A stretch of DNA of 25,394 nt, from contig JBHLOY010000022.1 in NCBI GenBank assembly GCA_048939995.1, positions 1-25,394 of the forward strand, read 5' to 3'. Both the position numbers and the translations under genes were made by a program. The notes under the pieces were generated by a model. That model saw only the letters and a list, made by a program, of their open reading frames with translations, was not told where the DNA came from and did no database searches. This DNA comes from Promethearchaeota archaeon (lineage in GTDB: Archaea; Asgardarchaeota; Lokiarchaeia; Sigyniarchaeales; SOKP01). How positions within the stretch are numbered: the first letter of the stretch is position 1; every line of letters starts with the position of its first letter. This document shows positions 2,682-25,056 of this stretch, piece after piece.

Positions 2682-4256
2682 TCACATATATGTAATTATT
2701 ACATTATACTTTTTTATATCTGATTCTACTTTTGCTTTTCCAAGTGGTGTTAATGTAATTATATCATTATTTCTTATTTTTAAAGCGGTTAATTTGATAT
2801 TAGGATCCTTCATTGAAGGTATATATGGATTCCAGTATATTTCTTTTGAAGTGGGATTAGTAATTATCCACAATATCGGTTCTAAGGAATGTCCAATTAT
2901 TCTAAGAGCCTTAAATATATATCCTATATCTGCATCAAAAGGAACAACAATCTTTATATTTTCTTCGCCTTCAATTTTGCCACAAGCCAAACAATCCTCT
3001 CTTTTGATAATATTAAGATGATCAAATTGGCCGTAAACCCCATTATAATTGACATAAGGAGGATCCATAGGGGCTCCGATATTTCTACCATGTAATCTAA
3101 ATATCATCTTTAAAGCTTCTTGGGATTGTATACTAGCTATAACTGAACTCACTGATTGAATTGCAGCAATTTTATTCCCCAAAATATTCTCCATTTCTTC
3201 AAATTTGAAATCTGGACCAAAAGTGTCTTTAATATTATTTTCCCATTCTTGAACTTCTTCAAAACTTAAGGATTTGAGTTTTTCCGGGGGTACATTTTCA
3301 TTAAATACACGGTGTCTTAATTTTTCGAGTTCTTCTTGTGCTATTTGTTTTAATTTTAATACATCTTCATCCATATTCATATCTGGTTTAAAACCATATT
3401 TTTTTTCAAAATCAACCTCAGCTTTAATAACACAATGATTTCTATTCCTTGGTAACCCCTTTAAAGTACAAGCAGCAATGAGCTTATCGTCAGCAGGTGG
3501 TATTGGAACAAGACATCTGTAACATGGAGTTATGTTCAATACATTTTCAGCATATTTTGCATCGAAATCCACCTCAACCTGTTTTCGAATTTGCTCTCTA
3601 ATAGGCTCAATTTTGTTTTGTTTGATTCTTTCAATATTCTGTTCTAATTCATCAATTTCTCTTAAAGCTTCTTTAAATTCTGGAGTGTCAAGCTCCCACA
3701 TTTTGCTTTCAACTAAATTCTCAATTTCAGTGGCTTTATCTTTGTATTCTATTCCTGAACCTTTAGGTATAATAATTTGAACATGCCCTTCAAAACCAAC
3801 TGTACCACCTTCAATAATAGGTATTTTCAACCTTAAACAAATTTTATTCAAATCCAATCTTGCATTAAAATTATCTAAAGCGGCAATCACTACTTCAGAT
3901 TCTTCAAATACCGACATAGGTAATTTTTGAAGTTTTTCAAAATAAAAGTCAACTTTTAAATAGGGATTCATTTCCTTTAGACGCTCAGCTGCTACTTCTG
4001 CCTTAGGACGACCCTCATCTCCAGGTTTGAATAACATTTGTCTTGATAAATTAGATGTTTCTATTGTATCTAAATCTACAAGTATTAATTTTCCAATACC
4101 CATTAGTGCAAAATCTTTTGCCACTTCACATCCAAGCGCACCAACTCCCACAATCATTAAACAAGCTTTCTCAAGAGTTGCTTGGTCCCATCCATCAATC
4201 AATTGCTGTCTTGCGTATATTCGAGATTTTAACACATCCTCTTTATTTTCCGTCAT
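2682..4256 (-). CDS. Ubiquitin-like protein activating enzyme E1 (ThiF family adenylation domain; Uba3/Uba2-like architecture)
   Basis: YARQ, GVGALG nucleotide-binding loop, DLDTIETSNLSRQ, KAE, ALDN..AR and GTVGFEG motifs. Zn pairs C245xxC248 and C422xxC425. Putative catalytic C263 in ACTLKGLPRNRNHC. GNKIAAIQSVSSVIA helix and a C-terminal ubiquitin-fold-like segment. Confidence 0.88.
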   Translation of the reverse strand: MTENKEDVLKSRIYARQQLIDGWDQATLEKACLMIVGVGALGCEVAKDFALMGIGKLILVDLDTIETSNLSRQMLFKPGDEGRPKAEVAAERLKEMNPYLKVDFYFEKLQKLPMSVFEESEVVIAALDNFNARLDLNKICLRLKIPIIEGGTVGFEGHVQIIIPKGSGIEYKDKATEIENLVESKMWELDTPEFKEALREIDELEQNIERIKQNKIEPIREQIRKQVEVDFDAKYAENVLNITPCYRCLVPIPPADDKLIAACTLKGLPRNRNHCVIKAEVDFEKKYGFKPDMNMDEDVLKLKQIAQEELEKLRHRVFNENVPPEKLKSLSFEEVQEWENNIKDTFGPDFKFEEMENILGNKIAAIQSVSSVIASIQSQEALKMIFRLHGRNIGAPMDPPYVNYNGVYGQFDHLNIIKREDCLACGKIEGEENIKIVVPFDADIGYIFKALRIIGHSLEPILWIITNPTSKEIYWNPYIPSMKDPNIKLTALKIRNNDIITLTPLGKAKVESDIKKYNVIITYM

Positions 4257-4430: not shown

Positions 4431-7400
4431 TCAATCTTTTTCCTTTTTAGATATATCCTTTAACATTTTTTTAATTTCGTCAGCCTTTTCTTTATCCTTC
4501 GCTTTTTGCATATCTTCTTTTTGCTTAGCGCTCTTTTCCTTAGATTTATTGATCTCCTCTATAAGCTCTTGTTTGAGTTTAATTAAATTTGCCATATCTT
4601 TGCTAAAAGATTTTGCTTCTTCTTTCAATTGGACTCTTTCTTCTCTTATTCTTTTTTTTAACTGTTTATCTTGTTTTTTAATTAGTTGAGAGACTTCACT
4701 TGTCATATCACTTACTTTATTTATAGTTTGTTGTATTTTATTTTCTTCTTCCAATAAACGAAGTTGTTCTGAGCGCTTTTTACTTGTCAAGTCTTCATAA
4801 ATTGCCTGCATTCTGACTTCATCTTGTTTTACTTTTTCTTGTAATTGTTTGGTATTTTCAATTTCTTTTTTAATAAATTTTGCTTGCTCCATCCAACCAA
4901 TTTCATTAAATTTAGAGGTCGCTCTTTCAAAAATAGAATATGCTCCTTCAAAATCATGATGAATTGCTAAACTTTTTCCTTCATCTATTAACTTTAAAGC
5001 ATCTTGTTTAATTTGATCAGTACGTTCTTTAAGTCGTAATAGCTGTCTCATCTTATTCTCTTGTACATTCTTTTTTCTTAAATAATCTTCACGTCTAGTT
5101 CTAATTTCCTCTTGAAATTTTTCATATTCTTTCTGACGGGCAAGTCGTCTCTGGACTTCTATTTTTTTCTTTTCAATAAACTGCTTTTTTTCTTGCTCTA
5201 AATCCTTAATTAAAACATCTATATTGTTAATTTCAGGTTCCCAACCAACATTTTCAGCTAATATTGCCCTAGCTTGCATATATAAAGAAATTGCTTGATC
5301 ATAATCGGGTTGTTTTCTTTTAAGATATGTGGCTCCTTTCTCTAAAAGATTATAAGCAGTTTCTCTATGACTTAGTTGTTCTTTAACTAATCTCTCCTTT
5401 TCCTTGATAGCAAGTTTTTGAGCAAATTCTTTTTCTCTTTCATATTTTCTCCTCTCTTCTATGAGTTCCCTTAGCTTCTTTTCCTCTTGAATTTTTTCTA
5501 ATTCTTTCTTTAGTTTTAATTGTTTCTCTTCCAAGTCCTTTTTCTTAAGCTCTTCAATTTTAATAGTCATTTGGGAGATAGAATTAGTAGGATAATGAAT
5601 TTTATTTAAAATTAACATAGCTTTTCTATAACTTTTAACCGAATTTTCATAATCTTTTACTTTAATAAATTTCTCGGCATCATCTAATATTTTAAAAGCT
5701 TCTTCTTTAATCCGCTTGGTTTCAACTTTTCCTTCTTCTAATTTCTGAACTTTAATTTCTCTTGCTTTTAATTTTTCTTTTTCTTTAAAAAGTTGTTCTA
5801 CTAATTTTTTATTAAATTCTTGCCGAGCTTTTTCATTTTGAATTTTTAATTCTAACTGCTTTTGTTTCTCTAATTCCTGTTCCCTTTTCTTCTCTCTCAC
5901 TTCTAATATCAGTTCCTTTAAGGAATCTGTAGGGAACTGGATTTCATTTAATATTAACTCAGCACTATGGTAAAATTCAATTGCTCTACCATACTGAGAC
6001 TTTTTCATAAAATTTTCTGCTTGTTCTAGAAGATCAAAAGCATCTGCTTTCCTCTTCTCAATATATCCTTTTACTCTTGCTTGTTTAATCAATTCAATTT
6101 GTTTTTGTCTCATTTGTTCAGTTTCAAATTTCATACTATCAGCAATTTTTTGTTGAAAGCGCTTCTGTTCTTCCTCCTTTTTAATTTGTTGTTCAATTTC
6201 AAACTGTTTTGCTAAATCTTTCTCTCTTTTCTTCTCCTGAATCTTTAAGATTAATTCTTTAATAGAATCAGTTGGAAATTGCAATTGATTTAAAACTATT
6301 TCTGCTTGATAATAAAGTTCAATAGCTTGTTCATAAAACCCCTGGCTTAATATGTTCTCTGCTTTATCCATTAAATTAAAAGCCTCGATTTTAATAGATT
6401 CCATTTGTTGCATTAAAACTTCTTTTTCTTTTATCTCAATACTTTTTGCTTTTAATCTGGCTCTTTCTTTCTCCATTTGTTCCATAAGTCGCATTTCAAA
6501 TTTTTTGTCAGATTCAATTTCTTTCCTTGTTGATTCTTTCTCTCTAAGTTCTCTTTTCTGTTTTTCTTCACTTCTGTTTTTTATTTCGCTAATAGTATCT
6601 TCGATTAATTTGATATAACCTCCTGTCCATCCAATATCTTCCAATAGATTTAAAGCTTGTTGGTAATTTATTAATGCATCGTTAAATTCTTCTCTTTTTA
6701 GATAAACATCAGCATTCTCAATCAATTTAAGAGCTTCTTCTTCTTTAGAGCGATTTTGAGCAGATAATTTCCTCCTCTTCTCAATTAATTCCTGATCTTT
6801 TAATCTTCGTCTATTCTCTATTTCTCGTTGACGCTTTAGTCTTTCAGTGAACTCCCGATTTTCCATTTCTTTTTTAATAGTGTCCTTTATCCTTTTTTGA
6901 TCAAAGATATCCTTCTCTTTCTTCTTCGATTCAATTTCGAGAATTGCATTATGTATGATTGGGATTTCATCTCTCCATTGAATTTGAGCAAAAACATTTG
7001 CAACCTTTCTATATGTGTCAATAGCATCATTAAACCTACCTAATGAGAGGTTGTTTTGTGCTTCTTCTATTAATCTAAATGCCTCTCTACGTTTATCTTC
7101 TCTATATTCAAATTCCTTTTCTTTTTCTCTTAACTTTAATTCTCTCTCTTTAAGATTCTCTTTTTGAGACTTTAGCTTCTCTATTATTGTAACTTGAAAA
7201 TTTCTTTCCTGTTTTTCCCTTTCTAATTTTTCTTGCAACTCTTTTTGCTTCTTTAGAAAAAATTCCCGTTTTTTATTTTCAATTTCGATGGTTGCATTAC
7301 CTATGAATTCTAATTCATCATACCACTGGATTTCAGCAAAAAGATTAGTTACATCATGGTAAATTTCAATAGCTTTATCAAAATTTGCTTTATTGATAAA

Positions 7401-9371
7401 CTCTTGAGCCTTATCTAGTAACTTAAAAGCATCTTCCTTTCTTTTCTGTCGATATTCTAACTCTTTTTCTTTTTCTCTTAATCTTATCTCATTTTTTTTC
7501 AATCTCTCCCTTTCTAAACTTAACTGGCTTGAAATTCTCTCCTGAAAATCCTGTTCTTCTTTTTGTCTTTCAATTTCATTCTGCATGTCTTTCTGTTTCT
7601 TATTCTCTAAATTTTTTTTCATTTGTTCTAAATCTTTAATTGATTCTTCGATTAAAGGTAATTCTTCATGCCATTGAATTCCAGCAAAAATATTACCGAC
7701 ATGTTGATATGCCAAAATTGCTTTATCAAATTCTCCCGTTTGGATATATTTTTGGGCATCATCTAATGCTTTAAATGCTGAATCCCTCCTATACTCGATG
7801 TACTCCGCCTTTTCCTGTTCTAACTGGATCCCAATTTCTTTTTCTTCTAGCTTTTTACGTTCTTTTTGTAAGATATCAGTAATCTGCTGTTGAAATTTAG
7901 ATTCTTCTTTTTGTTTCTCTTCCATTCGTTTCTGAGTTTCAAATTCTTTCTTATAATGGGCTTCTTTCAACTTCTTAACACTATTAATCGTAGTTTTGAT
8001 CATTGGTATATAAGATTCCCAACTTGGACCAAGATCAAAGAGTACTTCTAAAGCATTTTGATATTCTATTAGTGCTGAATCAAAATCATGTTGTTTTTGA
8101 AGAGAATTATCAGCTTTATCTAAAAAAGTGAAAAAATCAGCCTCTTTTGCCAATTGAATTTTCCTTTTTTGTTCATAATCTTTACGGCGAAGTTCTTCCT
8201 CTTTTGCAGACTGTATTATTTCCTCCCTTTTTTTAACATAAAACGTATCTTGAATCTTTCTAATCTCTTCTTCTCTTTTATTTTTCAGATCTTCCAAATT
8301 CTCTTCCATTTCCTGCTTTTCCCTTACATCCTTTATAAAATTCATAATAGGGAGGATATAGGAATCCCATTCAATTGATTTAAGAAGTTGGACTGCCTTT
8401 TGAAACTTTTCAATTGCTCTCTTGTAATCTTTTTCGCGCTCTAATTTCTTAGCGTATTCAATTAAATTAAAAGCTTCAATTTGGATTTCCTCTTCCGTTC
8501 TTTTTTTAAGTTCAAATTCAATAATTTTAGTACCATCAGCGTATATTTGAGAGTCATCATAAAGGTCTGAAGGTGGTATTTCACTTATTTGAGGTTCTAT
8601 CTTCAATCTTTCATACTTTTGTTTTTCATTTCTAAGTTTTTCAACAATAAATTGGAGATTTTGAGTCTGTTCTTTCCATCCAATTGAATTTAATAGCTGA
8701 ATTGCTTTTTCATAATTTTCAATCGCTTCATCGAACCTTCTCTCCTTCTCAAAGAATTTTGCATTATCAATAAAAGTAAATGCATCATTTTGGATACGTT
8801 TTTGTCTTGCCCTCTCCTGTCTATACTTTATAAGTTGTTCAGTTCTTTCAGCATTCTTCTTTTCACCGAATACATCCACCACCTGAGGACTCACCTCTAT
8901 ATCGGAAACACTCTGGCTGCTTTCACTTTTGATTGATTCTTGAATGTTTTGTTTATCAATTAAAGTAGTAACTTTCACTCTTAAATTTTGAATTTGCGTT
9001 TCAGACCAGCCGGCCTGTGTAAGTAATTTTATAGCAGAATTATATCTTTCAATTGCACCTTGAAAAAATCCGTCGGATTCTAATTTATTTGCCTTATCTA
9101 TTAAAACAAATGCTTGGTCCTGCAATTTTTCAATTTGAGTAGCTGCTTGTTTATGTTGGAACAACTTTTTTTCTTGTATAAACGATTTTAATCCTTCTAT
9201 TCTTTCATATAAGTCACTAACTCGATGCATCATATACCCGCTTTTTTTAAGGTAATCTGCAGCTATTTGATAATTTTCGATTGCTTCTTCATTATTTCCC
9301 TCTTCCTCAAATCTCTGAGCTCTTTCTAAATATTTAAGGGCTTCTTGAGCTAAATAATCATTATCTTGCAT
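4431..9371 (-). CDS. 1646-aa all-helical repeat protein: 14 MIT/TPR-like three-helix units separated by E/K/R/Q-rich long helices
   Basis: The motif AFxL(I/L)(D/E)xA-x(5-7)-(F/Y)xxA(I/L)xxY-x(10)-(G/Q)W or (F/Y)PT recurs 14 times. The ORF is uninterrupted for 4.9 kb and has no TM segment. Confidence 0.8.
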   Translation of the reverse strand: MQDNDYLAQEALKYLERAQRFEEEGNNEEAIENYQIAADYLKKSGYMMHRVSDLYERIEGLKSFIQEKKLFQHKQAATQIEKLQDQAFVLIDKANKLESDGFFQGAIERYNSAIKLLTQAGWSETQIQNLRVKVTTLIDKQNIQESIKSESSQSVSDIEVSPQVVDVFGEKKNAERTEQLIKYRQERARQKRIQNDAFTFIDNAKFFEKERRFDEAIENYEKAIQLLNSIGWKEQTQNLQFIVEKLRNEKQKYERLKIEPQISEIPPSDLYDDSQIYADGTKIIEFELKKRTEEEIQIEAFNLIEYAKKLEREKDYKRAIEKFQKAVQLLKSIEWDSYILPIMNFIKDVREKQEMEENLEDLKNKREEEIRKIQDTFYVKKREEIIQSAKEEELRRKDYEQKRKIQLAKEADFFTFLDKADNSLQKQHDFDSALIEYQNALEVLFDLGPSWESYIPMIKTTINSVKKLKEAHYKKEFETQKRMEEKQKEESKFQQQITDILQKERKKLEEKEIGIQLEQEKAEYIEYRRDSAFKALDDAQKYIQTGEFDKAILAYQHVGNIFAGIQWHEELPLIEESIKDLEQMKKNLENKKQKDMQNEIERQKEEQDFQERISSQLSLERERLKKNEIRLREKEKELEYRQKRKEDAFKLLDKAQEFINKANFDKAIEIYHDVTNLFAEIQWYDELEFIGNATIEIENKKREFFLKKQKELQEKLEREKQERNFQVTIIEKLKSQKENLKERELKLREKEKEFEYREDKRREAFRLIEEAQNNLSLGRFNDAIDTYRKVANVFAQIQWRDEIPIIHNAILEIESKKKEKDIFDQKRIKDTIKKEMENREFTERLKRQREIENRRRLKDQELIEKRRKLSAQNRSKEEEALKLIENADVYLKREEFNDALINYQQALNLLEDIGWTGGYIKLIEDTISEIKNRSEEKQKRELREKESTRKEIESDKKFEMRLMEQMEKERARLKAKSIEIKEKEVLMQQMESIKIEAFNLMDKAENILSQGFYEQAIELYYQAEIVLNQLQFPTDSIKELILKIQEKKREKDLAKQFEIEQQIKKEEEQKRFQQKIADSMKFETEQMRQKQIELIKQARVKGYIEKRKADAFDLLEQAENFMKKSQYGRAIEFYHSAELILNEIQFPTDSLKELILEVREKKREQELEKQKQLELKIQNEKARQEFNKKLVEQLFKEKEKLKAREIKVQKLEEGKVETKRIKEEAFKILDDAEKFIKVKDYENSVKSYRKAMLILNKIHYPTNSISQMTIKIEELKKKDLEEKQLKLKKELEKIQEEKKLRELIEERRKYEREKEFAQKLAIKEKERLVKEQLSHRETAYNLLEKGATYLKRKQPDYDQAISLYMQARAILAENVGWEPEINNIDVLIKDLEQEKKQFIEKKKIEVQRRLARQKEYEKFQEEIRTRREDYLRKKNVQENKMRQLLRLKERTDQIKQDALKLIDEGKSLAIHHDFEGAYSIFERATSKFNEIGWMEQAKFIKKEIENTKQLQEKVKQDEVRMQAIYEDLTSKKRSEQLRLLEEENKIQQTINKVSDMTSEVSQLIKKQDKQLKKRIREERVQLKEEAKSFSKDMANLIKLKQELIEEINKSKEKSAKQKEDMQKAKDKEKADEIKKMLKDISKKEKD
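4830..9345 (-). repeat. Intragenic protein-level tandem repeat, 14 units, period ~113-119 aa in the core
   Basis: First codons of the repeat-defining residue lie at about 9341, 9113, 8783, 8474, 8135, 7778, 7430, 7082, 6734, 6383, 6041, 5699, 5357 and 5000. Spacings are 76, 110, 103, 113, 119, 116, 116, 116, 117, 114, 114, 114 and 119 codons. Confidence 0.85.
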
Positions 9372-9555: not shown

Positions 9556-11511
9556 ATGGAAAATAATAAAATTGTAATGGATTTAGAACCAATTTCCAGG
9601 AGGCTCCATTGTTCAATAGAAAAATCTATTTATCAAATGATTATCGATTCGGGAATTCAAATTCGAACATTATGTGGAGGGAAAGGTACTTGTGGAAAAT
9701 GTAAACTCCAGATTCAAAAAGGACAAAGATTTTTTAATTCACCATCTCAAACAGAAATTGAAATTTTAAAAGATGGTTTGAAGGAAAACTGGAGATTAGC
9801 GTGTCAATTAAAAATTAATTCTGAAAAAATTGAATTGATAAATGAATTTAAATCTCCCCAATTTACAGTTTTCTTACCTGATGAGTTATTAATTGAAGAT
9901 TTTAAAATATTAACCTCTGGAATTACAAGAAAAATTAAACTTCATCCAAATATACAGAAAGTATATGTAAGGGTTGAAAGACCAACCCTTAATCGCCCTA
10001 TTCCATACTTAGAAAGAGTCTTTAAAGCCCTAAATAATTTACCCTTTATAATTAAGCTAAATGAAAAAAATATAGATTTAAATGCTTTGAAAACCCTTGA
10101 CCGCCTTATTAATGATGACTGTTATGATTTTACGATTACTTTTCTAAATAAATCCAAAATAATTCATTTTGAGCCTGGAGATAAAACTGAGGAGAATTTT
10201 GGAGTTGCTTTTGATATTGGAACAACTACAATAGTAGGTTACTTAATTAACCTTAAAGATGGAAAAACTTATGCTGTAGCATCAATGTTAAACCCCCAAA
10301 CTGCATATGGAGAGGACCTAATTACTAGAATAACATTTATTAAGGATCATAAAGAAGGACTGAAAAAGTTGAACTCAATTGTTATCGATGCACTAAATAA
10401 GTTAATAGATAAATTATGCTTTAAGGCAAAAATTTATCCAGCTCAAATATTTGAAATTACCATCGTCGGCAATTCTGTTATGCATCATATATTTCTTGGG
10501 TTAAATCCTAGAAGCATTGGAGTGAGTCCTTATGTTCCTGTACTCCAACAAGAGCTCAATTTAACTCCTTATGAATTAAATCTAAAGTCATTCCCTCAAG
10601 GTAATATTTACATTTTACCATTGATCGCAGGATTTGTCGGTGCCGATACAGTTGGCGTAATAGTATCTTCTGGAATTGATGAAGAAGCTGACTTAACATT
10701 GGCCCTAGATATTGGAACGAATGGCGAATTAGTTATAGGTAATAAAAACGTATTAATTACTGGTTCTTGTGCAGCTGGATCTGCTTTAGAAGGTGCTCAT
10801 ATCAAAGATGGAATGAGAGCGGCTGGTGGAGCAATAGACACAATAAAAATTAATCCTAAAACATTAGATGTGTCATTTACTACTATAAAAAACAAACAAC
10901 CTATTGGTATTTGTGGATCCGGTTTAATTGATGCTGTTGCAGAATTATTAAAATCTAAAATTTTAACCCGGAGTGGGAATTTTAATAAAGACTTTATTCA
11001 AAAAGATAGATTCCAAACCATAGAAGGTAAAATAGAATTTATAATTGCTTATAAAAATGAAACTTCAAACGGAAGAGAAATTACACTTTCTCAAAAAGAT
11101 ATCAGGGAAATACAGATGGCAAAAGCGGCATTTTTCTCAGGAACTAGAGTTATATTAGACTATCTCAGAACTAAGTATAAGAAAGAATGTGAAATATCAC
11201 AAATTTTTCTAGCAGGTGCTTTTGGTAATTATATTAATAAAGAAAATGCTAAATTTATCGGGATGATTCCTGATATTAGTTTGGATAAAATATATCAAAT
11301 AGGTAATGCAGCTGGGACTGGTGCAAAAAATTGTTTGATAAATAAAGCTTTAAGAACAAAAGCTCAGAATTTACTGAAAAATATAAATTATGTAGAAATA
11401 GCATTAGAAAAAAATTTCCAAAAAGAATATGCCGAAGCAATGTATTTTCCTCATATGAATTTGAATCTCTTTCCTAGTTTAGAAACTTATAAAAGCGTTC
11501 CTATAAGATAA
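9556..11511 (+). CDS. ATP-dependent reductive activator of corrinoid proteins (RACo/AcsV-like; ASKHA ATPase, DUF4445) with N-terminal [2Fe-2S] domain
   Basis: CGGKGTCGKC plus RLACQ (2Fe-2S domain). ASKHA motifs DIGTTT, NPQ..YGEDLITR, GFVGAD, DIGTNGE, CAAGSALEG, GICGSG, QxAKAA, LAGAFG and GNAAGTGA. Confidence 0.92.
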   Translation: MENNKIVMDLEPISRRLHCSIEKSIYQMIIDSGIQIRTLCGGKGTCGKCKLQIQKGQRFFNSPSQTEIEILKDGLKENWRLACQLKINSEKIELINEFKSPQFTVFLPDELLIEDFKILTSGITRKIKLHPNIQKVYVRVERPTLNRPIPYLERVFKALNNLPFIIKLNEKNIDLNALKTLDRLINDDCYDFTITFLNKSKIIHFEPGDKTEENFGVAFDIGTTTIVGYLINLKDGKTYAVASMLNPQTAYGEDLITRITFIKDHKEGLKKLNSIVIDALNKLIDKLCFKAKIYPAQIFEITIVGNSVMHHIFLGLNPRSIGVSPYVPVLQQELNLTPYELNLKSFPQGNIYILPLIAGFVGADTVGVIVSSGIDEEADLTLALDIGTNGELVIGNKNVLITGSCAAGSALEGAHIKDGMRAAGGAIDTIKINPKTLDVSFTTIKNKQPIGICGSGLIDAVAELLKSKILTRSGNFNKDFIQKDRFQTIEGKIEFIIAYKNETSNGREITLSQKDIREIQMAKAAFFSGTRVILDYLRTKYKKECEISQIFLAGAFGNYINKENAKFIGMIPDISLDKIYQIGNAAGTGAKNCLINKALRTKAQNLLKNINYVEIALEKNFQKEYAEAMYFPHMNLNLFPSLETYKSVPIR

Positions 11512-11780: not shown

Positions 11781-12308
11781 ATGTCAAGTTTTAAACTAAA
11801 AGTATTGCTTACTGGCGCTGCTGCTGTTGGAAAAACAAGTTTAGTGCAACGATTTATAAAAAACAGATTTGCTGCTAATTACAAGCTCACAGTAGGTGTT
11901 GATATTCTAACAAAGGATGTAGAGTTTAGGTCGGGAGAATTTGCTACACTCTCAATTTGGGATATTGGAGGTCAACAAAGGTTCGAATTTATTCGCAGTA
12001 CTTTTTACAAAGGAGCAGCTGGAGCTCTTTTAGTATTTGATCTAACTAGGGAACAGACATATACAGAAACTAGGAAATGGTTGACTGAAATACGCCAATT
12101 TGCTGGAGAGAACATTCCTTTTATTTTGATTGGGAATAAAGCAGATTTACTTGAAGATGTCGGAGTTGTAATTGATAAAAATGATGCAATGTCTTTTGCA
12201 GAGAAAGAAAAAAGTATCTATATTGAAACTTCGGCTAAGACTGGTGAAAATGTTGATGCTGCATTTACGGAATTAACAAGAAGGATTATTAATTCAAGAA
12301 CACAATAA
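11781..12308 (+). CDS. Rab-like Ras-superfamily small GTPase
   Basis: G1 GAAAVGKTS, G2 YKLTVG, G3 WDIGGQ, G4 GNKAD, G5 ETSAK. RabF-like motifs are present and there is no C-terminal Cys. Confidence 0.93.
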   Translation: MSSFKLKVLLTGAAAVGKTSLVQRFIKNRFAANYKLTVGVDILTKDVEFRSGEFATLSIWDIGGQQRFEFIRSTFYKGAAGALLVFDLTREQTYTETRKWLTEIRQFAGENIPFILIGNKADLLEDVGVVIDKNDAMSFAEKEKSIYIETSAKTGENVDAAFTELTRRIINSRTQ

Positions 12309-13880: not shown

Positions 13881-15734
13881 TTATTCAAAATCTTTAAGTA
13901 AATCTTCGATTTCTTTTATTTGATTATTAACATTTTCTTCAATTGTTATTAATCTTCTTTTCTTATCTTCAAGCTCTTTGGCAGTAATTTCTCCAGTTAA
14001 TTCTTTCATATCAAAATCTAATGACATTTTTGCAAGATAAGCTTTTTTGATTTTTAAGTCAATAAGTGATTTTTCTAAGCTTAACTTTTGGGGCACTTCA
14101 GTAGGAGCACTTTCTTTAGAAGCGGATAAAGTTTGTTCTGGAGGTATGGTTGGGGGAGATTGTTGGGTCGTAATCACTTTTATTGGTTCAGGTGGCTTTA
14201 TTGGTTCTATTGCTGATTCTAAAGGCATAACTGTTTTTGGCATCAATTTAGAAGGTGTTTCGATATTTTCACTTTTCACTTCTTGGTTAGTCACTTGAGC
14301 ATACGGAGAAATTTGCAATTTTTCCCTGGCACCTTTAGGCACCTCGCTAATTGACTTAGGTCTTTGCTTTACCATAAAATCTTCAGGATTTAGATTTAAA
14401 CCAATTTTTTTAGGGACAGAAGATTCTACTTCTTGAGGGATTGGAGGTGAAATTTCAGTTTGAAGATTTTCAGATATAGTTTTTTCTTTAATTACCTTAA
14501 TAGGTTTTTTAAGTGTTGAAGACTTAACTTTAAATGCTTGTAAAGGAATTTCTAGCTTTTTAAGAGCGATAGGTTTCCCCAGGTGTTGTTTAAATGCCTT
14601 AGAACCTTCAACTTCAGGACTATCTTCTACTGAAGGCGTTGAAGGCGCCACTGGAGTTTCAACACCCTGACTTGTTGGAGGCGATGCAGGTGAAATTTGT
14701 GGGAGCATACCTAAAATTTTTTGTGATTTTTCGAAAAACTCTTTTCCTAATGAATCGTCTCCTAATTCTATGCATAAATCACAAATTATTTCAAATAATT
14801 TCGCAGCTTTTTCAAATTCAGCATTCTCTAATGCCTTTGCTGCTTCTTCTATATATGTATCTCTTTTTAATAGGGGTTGCAATAAAGGAGATACTTCTGC
14901 ACTCATTTCTAAAATATCTGCAATGATTGTAATCATTTTGTCTCTATTTACAGGATCTTTTGCGATCATAGAGTAGGTTTTTAAACCTAAAATTTTTTCT
15001 ATTTGATCTGGTTTCATTGCTGTCTCTAAATCTTGTTTATTTCCAATTATAGCGGTATGTGCATGGGGGGCTTGTACTTTTATTAATTCGAGAAAAAATT
15101 TGCTCTTTTCTACGTTTTCCAAACTAGAATCTGTAATTAAAAGGACAGCATCACTCCCTTTAATAAAATTATTCCAAAGATAGCTAAACTGTTCTTGGCC
15201 AGCAAAATCCCAAAGATGGAAATGCAATTTGCCAATTTTGATTGTTGCAATATCACCTGTAATAGTTGGAATATGTTGCAAAGGAATTTCTTCTGCCCTA
15301 ATAAGCCTAGTTAAAGTAGTTTTACCGACTCCCGAAAAACCAACTAATGATATTTTTGGTCGTAAATTTTTATGTGTTACATCAATTGTGGGATCAAAAA
15401 TTTCAAAAGTTTTTTCATCATATTTATGCATTATTATGTCTTCAAATAAATTTAGAAATTCTTTTCTACATTTTATCAATTCCTTCTTGACATTTTCAAA
15501 ATTATCAGTAAGACCGGTAACAAAAAGAAATATTAACTGTAATTTTGGTTCGGTAATAAAAGAGATCCTATATTTATAATAATCGTGATAATCTACACTA
15601 TCGGTTCCTTTAGCAAAAGCTTCTTTTATTAAATCCGTAAATAATGCTTTAAAAACATCATCCTTCAATGCTTTTCCAAATTGCCTATAATATAATAAAT
15701 CGTTAGCCTTATAGATATAAACCTGCCTTAAAAT
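13881..15734 (-). CDS. Longin-like domain + Arf-like small GTPase + helical (MIT/TPR-like) hairpin + Pro-rich linker + C-terminal coiled coil
   Basis: G1 GFSGVGKTT, G2 IPTITG, G3 WDFAGQ, G4 GNKQD. The N-terminal region has a longin-like pattern. The frame is open 22 codons upstream of the track's TTG (15668) to ATT at 15734, giving (M)LRQVYIYKANDLLYYRQFGKA and 617 aa in total. Confidence 0.82.
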   Translation of the reverse strand: MLRQVYIYKANDLLYYRQFGKALKDDVFKALFTDLIKEAFAKGTDSVDYHDYYKYRISFITEPKLQLIFLFVTGLTDNFENVKKELIKCRKEFLNLFEDIIMHKYDEKTFEIFDPTIDVTHKNLRPKISLVGFSGVGKTTLTRLIRAEEIPLQHIPTITGDIATIKIGKLHFHLWDFAGQEQFSYLWNNFIKGSDAVLLITDSSLENVEKSKFFLELIKVQAPHAHTAIIGNKQDLETAMKPDQIEKILGLKTYSMIAKDPVNRDKMITIIADILEMSAEVSPLLQPLLKRDTYIEEAAKALENAEFEKAAKLFEIICDLCIELGDDSLGKEFFEKSQKILGMLPQISPASPPTSQGVETPVAPSTPSVEDSPEVEGSKAFKQHLGKPIALKKLEIPLQAFKVKSSTLKKPIKVIKEKTISENLQTEISPPIPQEVESSVPKKIGLNLNPEDFMVKQRPKSISEVPKGAREKLQISPYAQVTNQEVKSENIETPSKLMPKTVMPLESAIEPIKPPEPIKVITTQQSPPTIPPEQTLSASKESAPTEVPQKLSLEKSLIDLKIKKAYLAKMSLDFDMKELTGEITAKELEDKKRRLITIEENVNNQIKEIEDLLKDFE

Positions 15735-19558: not shown

Positions 19559-20539
19559 ATGTTAAAAAATAAAACAATTCTTATTACTGGAGCTGCTGGT
19601 TTTATTGGATCTCATTTAACTGAAATTTTACTTAAGAACAAAAACTTTCTAATTTTGATCGATAATTTCAATGATTATTATCAAGGAAAGGAAGAAAGAT
19701 TAGCAGCTATACTAAATAATTACAAATTCACTAAGGATTACATACTTTTAAAAAAGGATCTTTTAGATTCATCGGTTTTTAATCAAGTTGATAAGCATAT
19801 TGATGTAATGTATCATTTAGCAGCTCAAGCAGGTGTGAGGTATTCTACTAAACATCCCATTAAAGTCGCACATAATAATATCATTAGTACAGTTAATCTA
19901 TTTGAATTTTCTCGCCAACTTGATGAAATTAGTAAAATTGTATATGCCTCATCATCATCAGTATATGGGAATCCAATTTACACTCCCTGTGATGAAAATC
20001 ATCCGAAAGTTCCGATATCTGCTTATGCTATATCTAAATTAACTGGTGAAGTATATGCTGACTTTTATTATCGTGAATTTAACTTGCCAATTACTTCTTT
20101 AAGATTTTATACTGTATATGGACCAAGAGGAAGACCGGATATGGCTATATATAAGTTCTTTGAGTTAATGTATCAAAATAAAGAAATACCGATTTATGGA
20201 GATGGAGAACAAGTTAGGGATTTTACTTATATTTCCGATATCGTTGATGGTATGATTTTAGCTGGTGAAAAAGATGAGTCTATAGGGGAGATATTCAATT
20301 TAGGATGCTCAAATCCCTTAAAAGTAAATGATTTAGTTGATAAAATGTATAAAATAACAAATAAACCTAAAAGAATAAAATACTTACCAAAACAGAAAGG
20401 TGATGTTGATTTGACTCATTCAGATATAACTAAAGCGAAGAAAATGTTAAATTTCAAACCCAAAATAGATATAGAAGAAGGCTTAAGATTACAACACCAA
20501 TGGCAATTAAAAAATTTTGAGAAATCAACAAAAATTTAA
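19559..20539 (+). CDS. NAD-dependent epimerase/dehydratase, UDP-glucuronate 4-epimerase-like (extended SDR)
   Basis: TGAAGFIG, HLAAQAGVRYS, ASSSSVYG, YAISK, RFYTVYGPRGRPDMA and RDFTY motifs. Confidence 0.88.
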   Translation: MLKNKTILITGAAGFIGSHLTEILLKNKNFLILIDNFNDYYQGKEERLAAILNNYKFTKDYILLKKDLLDSSVFNQVDKHIDVMYHLAAQAGVRYSTKHPIKVAHNNIISTVNLFEFSRQLDEISKIVYASSSSVYGNPIYTPCDENHPKVPISAYAISKLTGEVYADFYYREFNLPITSLRFYTVYGPRGRPDMAIYKFFELMYQNKEIPIYGDGEQVRDFTYISDIVDGMILAGEKDESIGEIFNLGCSNPLKVNDLVDKMYKITNKPKRIKYLPKQKGDVDLTHSDITKAKKMLNFKPKIDIEEGLRLQHQWQLKNFEKSTKI

Positions 20540-20732
20540 AAAGAAGATTAAAGAATTACTCCTATATTTTAAAATATCTAGTTTTATACTAAATAAAAAG
20601 CAAATTCATCCCTAATCTATGGGATCTTGGAAAAATTAACCACTAGAATAAATTTTTATTAAATTAATACCAATTATATTATTATACTAAACTTTTAATC
20701 ATACTAGAAATTTTTCGATCTGGGCTTTTATT

Positions 20733-21599
20733 TTGAAAACTCTAATGAGCAGCAATAATGTAGATAATATTACAGATGAAAAGATAGTTAAATTTCAAAA
20801 AAAATTTCACGATTTTAGCGAATTATTTAAATCTCTCGAAGATTTTGAATCTCATAAAAATACTACTATCCTTTCTATAATCCTTCCAATGTATAATGAG
20901 GAGAAAACAATCCGAAATGTATTAGAAAGTTTACCAGATCATAAATCCATTGAGATTATTGTTATTGATGACAAATCTACTGATAATAGTATAGAAGAGA
21001 TTAAAAAGGTTAATTCTACTAATGGTATTCGAATCCTTCAGCATAGTAAAAATAAGGGATATGGAGGAGCTATTACTACAGGGATGAGAAATGCTAAAGG
21101 AGAAATCATTGTATGCATGGATAGTGATGGACAACATAGTTCTGATGATATATATGAGCTAATTAAACCAATTATAAAAGGAGAATCAGATATTACAATC
21201 GGATCAAGATATCTAGGTAGTTACAATTATCCTTTACCTTTATTGAGACAAATCGGAGAAATTCTTGCAGAAAAAGTCTTAAGAATTTTTTTCAAGTTAA
21301 AGGTTAAAAACAATCAAAATGGTTTTCGGGCTTATAATAGAAGAGCTATTAAAATATTGAAAAGGGCGCTTTATCCTGATTATGCTTTTTGTACAGAACA
21401 AATATTAAAAGCTTCAGTATATGGTTTAAAAATCAAAGAGTGCCCTATAAAAGTATCTGGGCGACAACATGGGACTTCAAAGCTAACCATAATTAAGCTT
21501 GCACTAAACATCTTTTCTTGTTTATTACTATATTACTTTAGGAAAATTGAAGTAAATACTGCCAAAAAAAGTAAAAGTTTTTTCTCAATTATTTTCTAA
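20733..21599 (+). CDS. GT2 glycosyltransferase, polyprenol-phosphate sugar synthase (DPM1-like)
   Basis: SIILPMYNEE, DDKSTD, NKGYGGA, DSDGQH, GSRY, NGFRAY and R..GTSK motifs. Start is possibly ATG at 20745. Confidence 0.88.
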   Translation: MKTLMSSNNVDNITDEKIVKFQKKFHDFSELFKSLEDFESHKNTTILSIILPMYNEEKTIRNVLESLPDHKSIEIIVIDDKSTDNSIEEIKKVNSTNGIRILQHSKNKGYGGAITTGMRNAKGEIIVCMDSDGQHSSDDIYELIKPIIKGESDITIGSRYLGSYNYPLPLLRQIGEILAEKVLRIFFKLKVKNNQNGFRAYNRRAIKILKRALYPDYAFCTEQILKASVYGLKIKECPIKVSGRQHGTSKLTIIKLALNIFSCLLLYYFRKIEVNTAKKSKSFFSIIF

Positions 21600-21664
21600 G
21601 ATCTCATAATTACCATTTTAATATATTCATAAAATTTTTGATAGGTTAATCCTATTATACTCCT

Positions 21665-22735
21665 ATGAAAAAAATAATCACTTGTATAGGAATCCGGCCT
21701 GATATAATACGATTATCTCAAATAATTAAAAAGTTAGATAAATATTTTGAAAACATTATCGTTGATAGTGGTCAACACTATGATTATAATCTAAATAAAA
21801 TTTTTTATGATCAATTAGGAGTAAGAATACCAGAGTATAACCTTAACATAAAGAGTGGAACCCATTCGAGCCAAGTGGGAAGATTAATGATTGAATTTGA
21901 AAAAGTCCTATTAAAAGAAAGCCCTGAATTTGTCATTGTGCTCGGTGATAATAATAGTAGCTTAGGGTTTGCCTTAGCAACGTCTAAATTAAATATTCCT
22001 TTAGTCCATATTGAAGCAGGTATGAGAAGTAAGAATTGGATCATGCCAGAAGAAAAGAATCGTAAAATAATCGATCATTTAGCTGATATGAATCTGTGTT
22101 ACCTCACCGAGCATAAGCAAAATCTATTAAGAGAAGGATTAAATCCAAGAAGATGTTGGGTAATTGGGAATCCTATTTTAGAGGTTGTGAATGCTGTCAA
22201 AACTTCATTTAAACAAACCAATTCTTTTTACCTTGTTACGTGTCATCGGGCTGAAAATACAGAAATAGAGGAAAATCTTAAAATTATCCTTGGTTTTTTA
22301 GGAGAGTTATATAGAAGAAAAGAAATTGAAATTAAATTTATCCTTATGCCAAAAACTAAAAATATGATGGAGAAATATAAATTAGAATTTCCAAAGGGTA
22401 TTAATCCAATCCCCCCACAAGGTTTTTTGGAATTTCTCGGGATGGAAAAAGAAGCTAAATTAGTGATAACTGATAGTGGGACTGTTGTTGAGGAATGTGC
22501 TATTTTAGGAACTTCCTGCTTGACAATAAGAGAAAGCACAGAACGGGTCGATCTAATCGAGCTTGGCGTGAATTTATTAACAGGTATGAACATCGATCAA
22601 ATGCTTGATTCAGCAGAATTAGCATTATCTAATAAAGTCGAGCCAGTCTCTCATTATGGTGAAAATATCTCAAATAAGATTTGTAGTATTTTAATAGGGA
22701 ATTCTATTAATTTCTATAGAAATGCTGAAAGATAA
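21665..22735 (+). CDS. Non-hydrolysing UDP-N-acetylhexosamine 2-epimerase (WecB family; CapG/FnlC/QnlB-like subtype)
   Basis: GIRPDIIRLS, GQHYD, LGDNNS, HIEAGMRS, PEEKNR, GNP, CHRAEN, TDSGT..EE and R.STER motifs. IIRLS and TDSGT are typical of the CapG/FnlC subtype. Confidence 0.88.
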   Translation: MKKIITCIGIRPDIIRLSQIIKKLDKYFENIIVDSGQHYDYNLNKIFYDQLGVRIPEYNLNIKSGTHSSQVGRLMIEFEKVLLKESPEFVIVLGDNNSSLGFALATSKLNIPLVHIEAGMRSKNWIMPEEKNRKIIDHLADMNLCYLTEHKQNLLREGLNPRRCWVIGNPILEVVNAVKTSFKQTNSFYLVTCHRAENTEIEENLKIILGFLGELYRRKEIEIKFILMPKTKNMMEKYKLEFPKGINPIPPQGFLEFLGMEKEAKLVITDSGTVVEECAILGTSCLTIRESTERVDLIELGVNLLTGMNIDQMLDSAELALSNKVEPVSHYGENISNKICSILIGNSINFYRNAER

Positions 22736-22738
22736 TTG

Positions 22739-23626
22739 TTATCTTTTCATCATATAGGCTTTAAGTTCAGATATAGCTGTTCTTAAATCTTTTTTTCCCA
22801 TAATTTTTTCTAATTCAGAATAATTAGTAGCAAGAGATCGGTCAATTTTTTGTTCTGGTTTATAAATTTTTTCGATCTTCAATTCTTTTTCAAATGTATC
22901 ATTAAATATATTCATTAATTGATATTTATTTACTGTATTATTTGGTATATAGTGGTGTAGATAAGACTTTTCGATTAAATCTTCATAGTTATTCAAAGAA
23001 ATTATTTTTTCAGATAATTGAGCAAATTGAAGTGTAGTAATGCCATTCCAAATATGGTGTTCAAATCCTCCAATTGTTCCCCCTTTGGGTTGACTTAAAA
23101 ACCATTCTAATAAAAAACTTTCTTGCTTTTTAAGTTCAGGGCCAATAATAGAACATCTAATTATTAGCACTGATCTATCAAATACTTCACCAAGACTTTT
23201 TGACTTTCCATAAACATCTAATGGATCATGGGGGTCGTCTTCAGTATAATTTCCTCTCTTTCCAGAATAAACACAGTCAGTTCCAATTTGAATGACTTTA
23301 ATATTATACTTTCTGGTATAACTAGCTAATTTCCACGGAAAATCGGCATTTATTAAGATAGCTCTTTTAACACCTTCAGGATCATTATCTTTAGAGAAAG
23401 GTTTCGTTATTCCTATGCAATTAATAAGATAATCTATTTTCAAACCGACAAATTCTGGCTTTTCCAGCTGGGAAATATCGTAAGCATCAAAAAGAATTAT
23501 GTTCTCTTTTAAATATTTGACATTTCTAACAGTGCCATAAACCCTCAAATTTGGATTTTTAGATAGGTAGTCAAAAACCACCGATCCTAACATACCACTT
23601 GCACCCAGAACTAAAACATTTCTCAT
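22739..23626 (-). CDS. RmlD-like NDP-4-keto-6-deoxyhexose reductase (QnlA/WbvR-like)
   Basis: LGASGMLG, INCIG, GTDCVYSG, YGKSKSLGE, RCSIIGPE, LLEWFL and WNGITT motifs. ATG 23626 is preferred over the track's GTG 23638 because GGAGTGA lies 8 nt upstream of it. Confidence 0.85.
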   Translation of the reverse strand: MRNVLVLGASGMLGSVVFDYLSKNPNLRVYGTVRNVKYLKENIILFDAYDISQLEKPEFVGLKIDYLINCIGITKPFSKDNDPEGVKRAILINADFPWKLASYTRKYNIKVIQIGTDCVYSGKRGNYTEDDPHDPLDVYGKSKSLGEVFDRSVLIIRCSIIGPELKKQESFLLEWFLSQPKGGTIGGFEHHIWNGITTLQFAQLSEKIISLNNYEDLIEKSYLHHYIPNNTVNKYQLMNIFNDTFEKELKIEKIYKPEQKIDRSLATNYSELEKIMGKKDLRTAISELKAYMMKR

Positions 23627-23655
23627 TTTAACTTTCACTCCATATTAGGTTAAGA

Positions 23656-25056
23656 TTAGCGATTTTCTACTTCCCATATCTGCTTTCCCCAGTAATCAGC
23701 CGGAAACCTATAATCATCCCCTTTACTCTCTTCTAATGAACTTGTGGAAAAAAATATTACACGAGTATCTTCTTCTAATGGTCTAAATCCATTTGCATAT
23801 CTAGGAGGTATAAATAAAATTTGAGGATGTTTATCAGACAAAATATACCGATTAACATTCTGATGCTTTGAAGGTGATTTAAAGTCATCTAACTTTACAG
23901 CAGCTACAATAGCGGAACCTTTTGCGATATATACATATTTTGCTTCATTCATATGCCCATGAAATGCCCGAATTGTCGATGTACTAAAATTTTGAACTTG
24001 ATAAAAACGTTTAACTCCATAAAAGTTGAAATCGTTAGCAAAATTTAAATATCCTCTGTCATCTACCGCAATACCACCTTCTATTAACTGCAACTCTCTC
24101 TTTCCAATAGTCTCGTTTATTTTTATTCTTTCTGCTAATTTTAAGTTAGAATAAATCCCCTTATGAAAATCTTCCACTGTGGGAGATTCAATTATTTCTT
24201 TAACAGCATACTCGATGTCATAATTGAATTCAAAACCAGTTTTCATTATCTTGGCACTATCTACCATGTAACTTCTCTTATCTACAATATTTTTATTAAT
24301 CTCGATATTACAACCTGTGATTTCTTTAACAATTTCTCCTAATCTCATCAAACTTAGATTTTCACCGCGAATATTATATATTCCGTGTAAATTCTTCTTA
24401 ATAACGTGAGCTACAGCTCTTGAGATATCGCGAATATGTACAAATGGGCGTTCTTGTTCTCCTCCAAAAACCGTTATATTTTTGAATTTCTGAGCTCTTG
24501 CTGCAAATGAATTCACAACTAGATCATAGCGCATTCTCGGACTTAATCCATATGCCGTACCTAACCTTAGAATACAATAATCATCACTGCATATTTCTCT
24601 TATAAGGCGCTCTTGGGTATATTTAGTTTGACCATAGAAATCAATAGGGAAACCCTCATCTTCTTCCTTCACAACGATATTAGGTTCACTTCCATAAATA
24701 CTGCATGTACTAATATGTATAATAAACTTCTTCAACTTTTTACAAATTTCAGCAACATTTCGAGTACCTGAGCAATTTATATCAATAGCTAATCCAGTGT
24801 CTATTAGGCAAGCAGGATCTCCTACAATTGCTGCTAGATTTACTATAATATCGTAGCCTTTTACTATCTTTTCTAGTTTATCTCTATTTCTTACATCTTC
24901 CTCGATGAATAGATTTGGAGGAGAAAGATCTCTATAAAGATGATTGTCAAAAATATCAACCTCCCATCCCTCTTGTTTAATAATTTCGAATAATACACTT
25001 CCGATATATCCAAGTCCACCTATTAATAAGACTTTATTTGGCATTCTTCTTTCCAT
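23656..25056 (-). CDS. NAD-dependent epimerase/dehydratase (extended SDR) fused to a C-terminal RmlC/FdtA-like cupin
   Basis: GGLGYIG, NLAAIVGDPAC, STCSIYG, YGQTK and RPFVHIRD motifs. The C-terminal ~145 aa contain DDRG, RAFHGH..E and ILFIPP.YANGF (cupin epimerase/isomerase). Confidence 0.85.
   Translation of the reverse strand: MERRMPNKVLLIGGLGYIGSVLFEIIKQEGWEVDIFDNHLYRDLSPPNLFIEEDVRNRDKLEKIVKGYDIIVNLAAIVGDPACLIDTGLAIDINCSGTRNVAEICKKLKKFIIHISTCSIYGSEPNIVVKEEDEGFPIDFYGQTKYTQERLIREICSDDYCILRLGTAYGLSPRMRYDLVVNSFAARAQKFKNITVFGGEQERPFVHIRDISRAVAHVIKKNLHGIYNIRGENLSLMRLGEIVKEITGCNIEINKNIVDKRSYMVDSAKIMKTGFEFNYDIEYAVKEIIESPTVEDFHKGIYSNLKLAERIKINETIGKRELQLIEGGIAVDDRGYLNFANDFNFYGVKRFYQVQNFSTSTIRAFHGHMNEAKYVYIAKGSAIVAAVKLDDFKSPSKHQNVNRYILSDKHPQILFIPPRYANGFRPLEEDTRVIFFSTSSLEESKGDDYRFPADYWGKQIWEVENR

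Follow-up and report, generated by a model that had tools for sequence, protein, structure and literature searches.

Introduction

[quoted passage not shown] Such domains are also listed for Asgard E1s, including that of Lokiarchaeum, in Figure 3 and Supplementary Notes 2 and 4 of that paper, and its Supplementary Figure 2 displays an N-terminal YDRQ in the Caldiarchaeum E1 chain. The layout of archaeal and Asgard E1s was restated in a 2024 review (PMC11354881). The step from a symmetric MoeB-like dimer to an asymmetric eukaryotic E1 is usually inferred across very distant sequences. MoeB donates its arginine in trans. In BilD and in the eukaryotic E1s the arginine is supplied by the inactive half (Chambers et al., 10.1101/2023.09.26.559546).

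Here we describe an E1, denoted E1-B, encoded in a 25,394-nucleotide stretch of DNA from a Promethearchaeota archaeon of the class Lokiarchaeia (hereafter the window). The original prediction, made from the DNA sequence of the window, asked whether the SCCH-containing layout of this protein was new; the figures and notes cited above place it in Caldiarchaeum and Asgard E1s already. Since the layout was known, E1-B alone is of modest interest, and its value is comparative.

Results

Motifs and domain layout of E1-B

The features of the E1-B gene are collected in Table 1. The motifs quoted in the original prediction were all found at their places and the numbering of Cys263 was correct, so that its list of parts held as far as it went; it had, however, omitted a 77-aa insert at residues 166-242. 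In addition to the motifs positioned in Table 1, the P-loop occupies residues 37-42, SNLSRQ lies at 68-73 and the re-entry motif begins at 360. None of 20,000 shuffled sequences showed the combined motif pattern, and its CxxC-Cys-HC part was found in a single further ORF of the genome, E1-A on contig C23. The catalytic, zinc and ATP motifs are conserved in 162-164 of the 164 family members. The Arg finger does lie in the E1-B chain itself, as had been proposed, and its RQ is retained by 162 of the 164. The Cys domain is ~35 residues longer than in the short archaeal forms. Among named close homologs the labels are Promethearchaeota, Lokiarchaeota and other Asgard.

Table 1. Coordinates of E1-B and its parts in the window
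Feature	Position	Strand	Remarks
E1-B gene	2682..4256	-	524 aa; single-adenylation-domain canonical-type E1 (predicted)
YARQ Arg-finger motif, aa 14-17 (R16)	4206..4217	-	motif position; modelled dimer contact
Adenylation domain, N-terminal part, aa 12-165	3762..4223	-	P-loop, SNLSRQ, K85, D128/R133
77-aa helical insert, aa 166-242	3531..3761	-	alignment and model
First zinc-binding CxxC, C245 and C248	3513..3524	-	invariant in family alignment
Catalytic-cysteine motif, C263 ... H274, C275	3432..3473	-	aligned with UBA1 and UBA2 catalytic-Cys motifs
Helical Cys domain	3177..3431	-	minimal SCCH-like core and ~35 extra residues
Adenylation domain, C-terminal part	2973..3176	-	dimer helix and second CxxC (C422, C425)
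C-terminal ~96-aa domain (putative UFD)	2685..2972	-	structure alignment, UBA3 profile match, Atlas lead
Left contig edge	1..1	+	E2-B ~1.6-2.1 kb beyond, in 2.4-kb assembly gap C36-C24

A profile built from 58 sequences of the E1-B family matched human UBA3 in one continuous stretch that reached the ubiquitin-fold domain (UFD), with an E-value of 3.9e-62 (profile positions 25-406 of 425, UBA3 35-419). An AlphaFold2 model of E1-B was obtained (pLDDT 81, pTM 0.64), for which Foldseek reported UBA3 as the best match. In structure alignment, E1-B residues 9-524 aligned with UBA3 (2nvu_B) at Z 30.1, with 377 aligned residues and an rmsd of 8.2, and the alignment extended through the C-terminal ends of UBA3, UBA2 and UBA1, taking in the Cys domain and the UFD; MoeB covered the 235-residue core alone (Z 31.6, rmsd 1.9). 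The proposed UBA3/UBA2-type layout in a single chain was borne out by the comparison with UBA3, UBA2 and MoeB that had been suggested for checking it. The UFD assignment draws on the structure alignment and on an Atlas score of 0.83, which is at lead level; scanned in isolation, neither the C-terminal domain nor the Cys domain nor the insert had a useful match in Pfam, and the HHalign comparison of the C-terminal domain with UBA1 UFDs was not significant.

For the whole protein Pfam reported ThiF matches only, and the adenylation core fits MoeB and ThiF best, tied with UBA3, as would be expected of a sulfur-carrier activator of the MoeB/ThiF/UbaA type carrying accessory domains. This reading is hardly tenable, as E1-B falls far under each of the curated NCBIfam cut-offs (ThiF, 137 of 275 bits; MoeB, 124 of 266; UbaA, 108 of 450), the genome has two MoeB-like genes elsewhere, and E1-B has a Cys domain, a UFD and a linked E2. 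The separation from MoeB/UbaA activators agrees with what had been expected of it. The sequence and the model support a canonical-type E1 with a Cys domain, a UFD and its own Arg finger, and E1-B is very likely an active, Cys263-type enzyme.

The helical insert and a predicted homodimer

The insert, charged and all helical, separates the adenylation domain from the first CxxC. It was seen in this order only; in other orders of the class E1-B is present as short forms of ~410-420 aa that are devoid of it. The position of the insert is similar to that of FCCH, but the insert is all helical and recent, and it was treated as an independent insertion and not as an FCCH homolog.

Residues 1-430 of E1-B were modelled as a homodimer along with three controls. 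The homodimer scored 0.75 and the highest control 0.00, and in the dimer runs contact agreement was at least 96% and partner pLDDT at least 76. In calibration, 20 of 30 proteins solved as one-chain pairs attained the mark that we used, as did 1 of 23 solved as single chains. As dimers of MoeB and ThiF have already been solved, the result for E1-B may reflect its likeness to those. In the modelled interface the Arg-finger loop (residues 12-17) faces partner residues 66-74, and the inserts form an inter-subunit coiled coil with helices crossing at L204. I201, L204 and I208 are invariant, in an insert whose mean conservation is 52%. The coiled coil probably stabilises the dimer, and we consider the homodimer that the original prediction had envisaged to be likely on the strength of this modelling.

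The genome has six ThiF-family genes, of which two are MoeB-like, one is without class assignment and three are ubiquitin-type E1s; all six keep SNLxR, and therefore no dead partner subunit was found for E1-B. One of the three, E1-A (410 aa), has the same layout as E1-B and lies inside a Ubl-E1-E2-JAMM operon on contig C23. E1-A and E1-B are 36% identical and both are present in most genomes of the family, which would suit a heterodimer of the two as a forerunner of APPBP1-UBA3. Such a heterodimer is nevertheless very unlikely: both proteins keep all catalytic motifs and the Arg finger, each has its own E2, and the insert, which E1-A lacks, pairs with itself in the homodimer model.

Candidate partners and parallel cascades

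Both other ubiquitin-type E1s of the genome adjoin their own Ubl and E2. In addition to E1-A with its operon, the genome has a 293-aa E1 without a helical Cys domain, with its own JAMM, E2 and Ubl alongside. The operon Ubls (G000 C23:193243-193569 and 195439-195816) end in Ala-Gly, not Gly-Gly, and the same Ubl domain is found fused behind a roadblock-like domain, again with an Ala-Gly end, and behind a membrane anchor; G000 C6:24582-25505 and C23:194596-195393 are the coordinates listed with these Ubls and their fusions. In a 200-genome sample of the phylum, full-length E1-B matches came from this order alone. Judged by its distribution, E1-B is a class-restricted Lokiarchaeia paralog with an order-restricted insert, and thus a derived form.

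A distinct E2 of 169 aa, E2-B, is encoded at the E1-B locus in 14 of 20 relatives, within ~1-6.5 kb. The present assembly misses it only owing to a break of contig C36 at a tRNA gene; an assembly 99.8% identical to it (L064) bridges C36 to C24 and carries E2-B. An apparent tRNA gene with an intron stands at the right end of C36 (~20109-20274) and probably caused the break that hides E2-B. Across much of the family, E2-B (L064:15880-16389) shows 85-95% identity. Behind its catalytic Cys a loop is extended by ~13 residues, at what we take to be the position of the Cdc34/UBE2G loop. Synteny and homology give good grounds to regard E2-B as the partner of E1-B. In one genome of another order (G205) genes for an RWD-RING protein, E1-B, E2-B and a JAMM protein are consecutive, with a vWA-RING gene close by. 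A run in L112 (5359-12368) comprises RWD-RING, E1-B, E2-B, a JAMM with a helical tail, a divergent ThiF and vWA-RING; homologs of its RING and JAMM proteins are scattered in G000 (C32, C7, C28, C37, C3 and C6).

Ub-B is an orphan Ubl of 84 aa (C28:100549-100803) that ends in Gly-Gly plus one residue. It is strongly conserved in the class and was not found outside it in the phylum sample. It lies near a tandem form of E1-B, described below, at two loci, a minority of those with the tandem form, and at one locus near a copy of E2-B; none was found beside the tandem E1-B in L129, L130 and L139-L141. Between Ub-B and a divergent second E2-B, L097 encodes a 379-aa protein (807-1946) whose C-terminal domain resembles Ub-B (57% identical).

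By the linkage at those loci and by elimination we assigned Ub-B to E1-B, and on balance favour it as the main modifier. The same enzyme could instead pair more loosely, activating the operon Ubls (Ub-A, with the Ala-Gly end) or several modifiers, and charging more than one E2. In line with this, Ub-B is unlinked to E1-B in this genome, its linkage to E1-B is seen in two loci only, and an E2-A-type match is all that was seen in genomes carrying the tandem form. However, Ub-A and E2-A are encoded in the operon of E1-A, and E1-B, E2-B and Ub-B are linked pairwise in different lineages and are each strongly conserved, so that we regard looser pairing as possible but doubtful. The gene content indicates that Lokiarchaeia, like eukaryotes, operate ubiquitin-type cascades in parallel, each with an E1, an E2 and a modifier of its own.

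Intron-like inserts and neighbouring genes

In several Lokiarchaeia genomes E1-B, E2-B and Ub-B are interrupted by inserts (30-32 or 39 nt) that contain a hairpin and have edges resembling a bulge-helix-bulge; most of these inserts carry stops or shift the frame. Those in E1-B lie in the P-loop, in four genomes of one genus (L051 ~6520, L052 ~565, L043 ~1642 and L053 ~9873); in E2-B there are about five sites (L103-L109, L055 and L063), and in Ub-B two (L101, L102 and L110). They are likely tRNA-type introns of mRNAs. The E1-B gene of the window has no such insert.

Directly upstream of E1-B the window encodes a 1646-aa MIT/TPR-like helical repeat protein (4431-9371, minus strand). A gene of this type is adjacent to E1-B in 16 of 21 loci, all within family f1, and its product is a possible substrate or adaptor. 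A functional unit made of the MIT array, the E1 and a GNAT was considered and found no support, as GNAT is present in 2 of the 21 loci and the MIT/TPR-like gene is confined to that one family. At 15 of 21 loci (L044-L063) E1-B converges with a gene for a HAD-like hydrolase, and at 8 of 21 it has a subtilase-like gene next to it; both labels were given by eye and both genes are absent from the window. The window also encodes a RACo-type Fe-S protein (9556-11511, plus strand), a Rab-like small GTPase (11781-12308, plus strand), an Arf/Roc-like GTPase fusion (13881-15668, minus strand) and a sugar-nucleotide/glycosyltransferase cluster (19559-25056, assigned by eye), all of them ordinary for the lineage.

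A tandem form of E1-B

A search with representatives reported P0123, an 800-aa protein with two ThiF domains. There are 20 full-length proteins of this tandem form, 730-880 aa long and of one build, several of them labelled Sigynarchaeota (HME52195.1 and MDO8112195.1 are examples of the tandem enzyme), and in all three genomes of family f28 (G247, G287 and G296) it is the sole E1-B match at the search threshold. No E2-B was found in these three genomes, which are 78-88% complete; two have an E2-A-type match only and one has none. In all 20 proteins the first half keeps YARQ and has lost SNLxRQ and both CxxC, and the second half has lost RQ; the second half keeps the catalytic motifs, the zinc site and the UFD. 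The finger is thus found solely in the dead half, as expected if it acts in trans. FCCH and the four-helix bundle are absent from the inactive half, which has a variable acidic linker instead. P0123 also has a conserved N-terminal helix (residues 79-107) behind an acidic disordered tail.

The model of P0123 (pLDDT 65, with a disordered N-terminus) had UBA6, UBA7 and UBA1 as its first matches, and its two-domain core superposes on these at ~3.0-3.4 Å over ~410-420 residues. The tandem halves are 59% and 34% identical to E1-B, as against 35% and 22% to the UBA1 halves, and the identity to the window E1-B within the active core is 59%. The dead half carries the C-terminal signature of the E1-B type, and its closest match in this genome is the window E1-B. 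The tandem enzyme and the window E1-B probably use a near-identical ubiquitin (83%).

Phylogeny of E1-B and of the tandem halves

In our trees the eukaryotic E1s were represented by the UBA1 halves, with UBA3, UBA2, SAE1, APPBP1 and the Caldiarchaeum E1 left out. A quick tree of the N-terminal core left the dead half of the tandem form unplaced, and once the C-terminal core was added it was placed in E1-B. In the careful tree both tandem halves nest inside E1-B (support 99/94), and together with the window E1-B they form an inner clade (95/94). This nesting favours an independent duplication. In AU tests on 213 columns, shared ancestry of the tandem halves with UBA1 gave p-values of 0.39 and 0.097, and 0.098 for both jointly, none of which led to rejection. 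Overall, it seems likely that the tandem duplication was independent of that of UBA1.

In HHalign comparisons, the short archaeal Cys domain matched the four-helix bundle of UBA1 with a probability of 91% (42 columns) and SCCH segments with 65% and 25%; the control insert gave no match. The comparisons are pairwise, between hand-chosen regions, and their scores are hence suggestive only. The original prediction had likened E1-B to the ancestor that preceded the duplication of the eukaryotic E1 halves. Our sequence comparisons are compatible with a single-domain ancestor of the family as a whole. A special place for E1-B as the closest living proxy of this ancestor is quite unlikely. The archaeal Cys-domain core does resemble both the UBA1 four-helix bundle and the SCCH segments, and a clade of E1-B with the active halves of UBA1 was not rejected (p-AU 0.315); yet the best trees set E1-B among archaeal paralogs and apart from UBA1, the insert and the longer Cys domain are confined to one order, and the layout is common to Caldiarchaeum and many Asgard E1s. 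On this phylogeny, E1-B is a derived paralog and not a relic of the eukaryotic ancestor.

Discussion

The analysis points to E1-B as probably a homodimeric activating enzyme for a ubiquitin-like protein, belonging to a second Lokiarchaeia cascade whose genes are dispersed in this genome. In the model, two E1-B chains would pair through their adenylation domains as in MoeB, each lending R16 to the ATP site of the other, and the order-specific insert would form a coiled coil across the two-fold axis that probably steadies the dimer. By homology, Ub-B, the most likely modifier, would have its extra residue trimmed by a JAMM protease, be adenylated and then be moved to Cys263. Synteny and homology further suggest that the UFD recruits the neighbouring E2-B for transthiolation, and in other orders of the class RING genes adjoin E1-B and E2-B, whose products may serve as ligases for the cascade.

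The tandem E1-B apparently repeats, independently, the step behind the eukaryotic ubiquitin E1. It is fairly likely that the E1-B family of one order includes both a homodimer stabilised by a coiled coil and an independently duplicated, UBA1-like chain with a dead and a live half. If so, the change by which eukaryotic E1s became asymmetric is represented within a single order by its earlier and its later state. The unduplicated E1-B and the tandem dead-live version are close relatives that likely share one modifier, and the two could be compared for half-site reactivity, for the way in which the Arg finger is donated and for what asymmetry gains. If the duplication was independent, common descent does not necessarily follow where a prokaryotic E1, such as BilD, has a UBA1-like architecture.

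We found no published description of E1-B as a system of its own, of its insert or of the tandem form, in a search with most subscription papers outside its scope and thus as weak evidence of novelty. Of the described E1s, Caldiarchaeum subterraneum CSUB_C1476 and the archaeal Cluster I/II E1s (PMC5654768), as far as the figures and supplementary material of that paper go, have a layout in common with E1-B and the Arg finger in the chain. [quoted passage not shown] The genomic linkage of these clusters is seen across the E1-B family, with an E2 in 14 of 20 loci, RING-E1-E2-JAMM in G205 and a Ubl at two tandem loci. Unlike the Caldiarchaeum E1, E1-B has a UBA3-like Cys-Thr...Pro...His-Cys, the 77-aa coiled-coil insert and a longer Cys domain, and is a second paralog with dispersed partners; dimerisation is not discussed in the same parts of PMC5654768. 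Human UBA3 and UBA2/SAE2 share with E1-B the domain order (AAD, Zn, Cys domain, AAD, Zn, UFD), the catalytic-Cys motif and a small helical Cys domain. They need the Arg finger of an inactive partner, whereas E1-B carries R16 itself, and identity is ~18-29%. From sequence and model, E1-B would work like UBA3, and we do not class it as a UBA3.

The tandem P0123 resembles UBA1, UBA6 and UBA7 in having inactive and active domains in one chain, with the finger in the inactive half only and the Cys domain and UFD on the active half. It differs from UBA1 in having no FCCH or four-helix bundle, in its acidic linker and in keeping the zinc site. BilD, like P0123, is a prokaryotic single-chain E1 of the inactive-active-Cys order (Z 27.4, rmsd 3.8, 377 aligned residues). 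In contrast to E1-B and the tandem form, BilD lacks a UFD, and its role is in phage defence; the window protein is single-domain, and in the E1-B system, unlike in that of BilD, the unduplicated parent survives in sister families.
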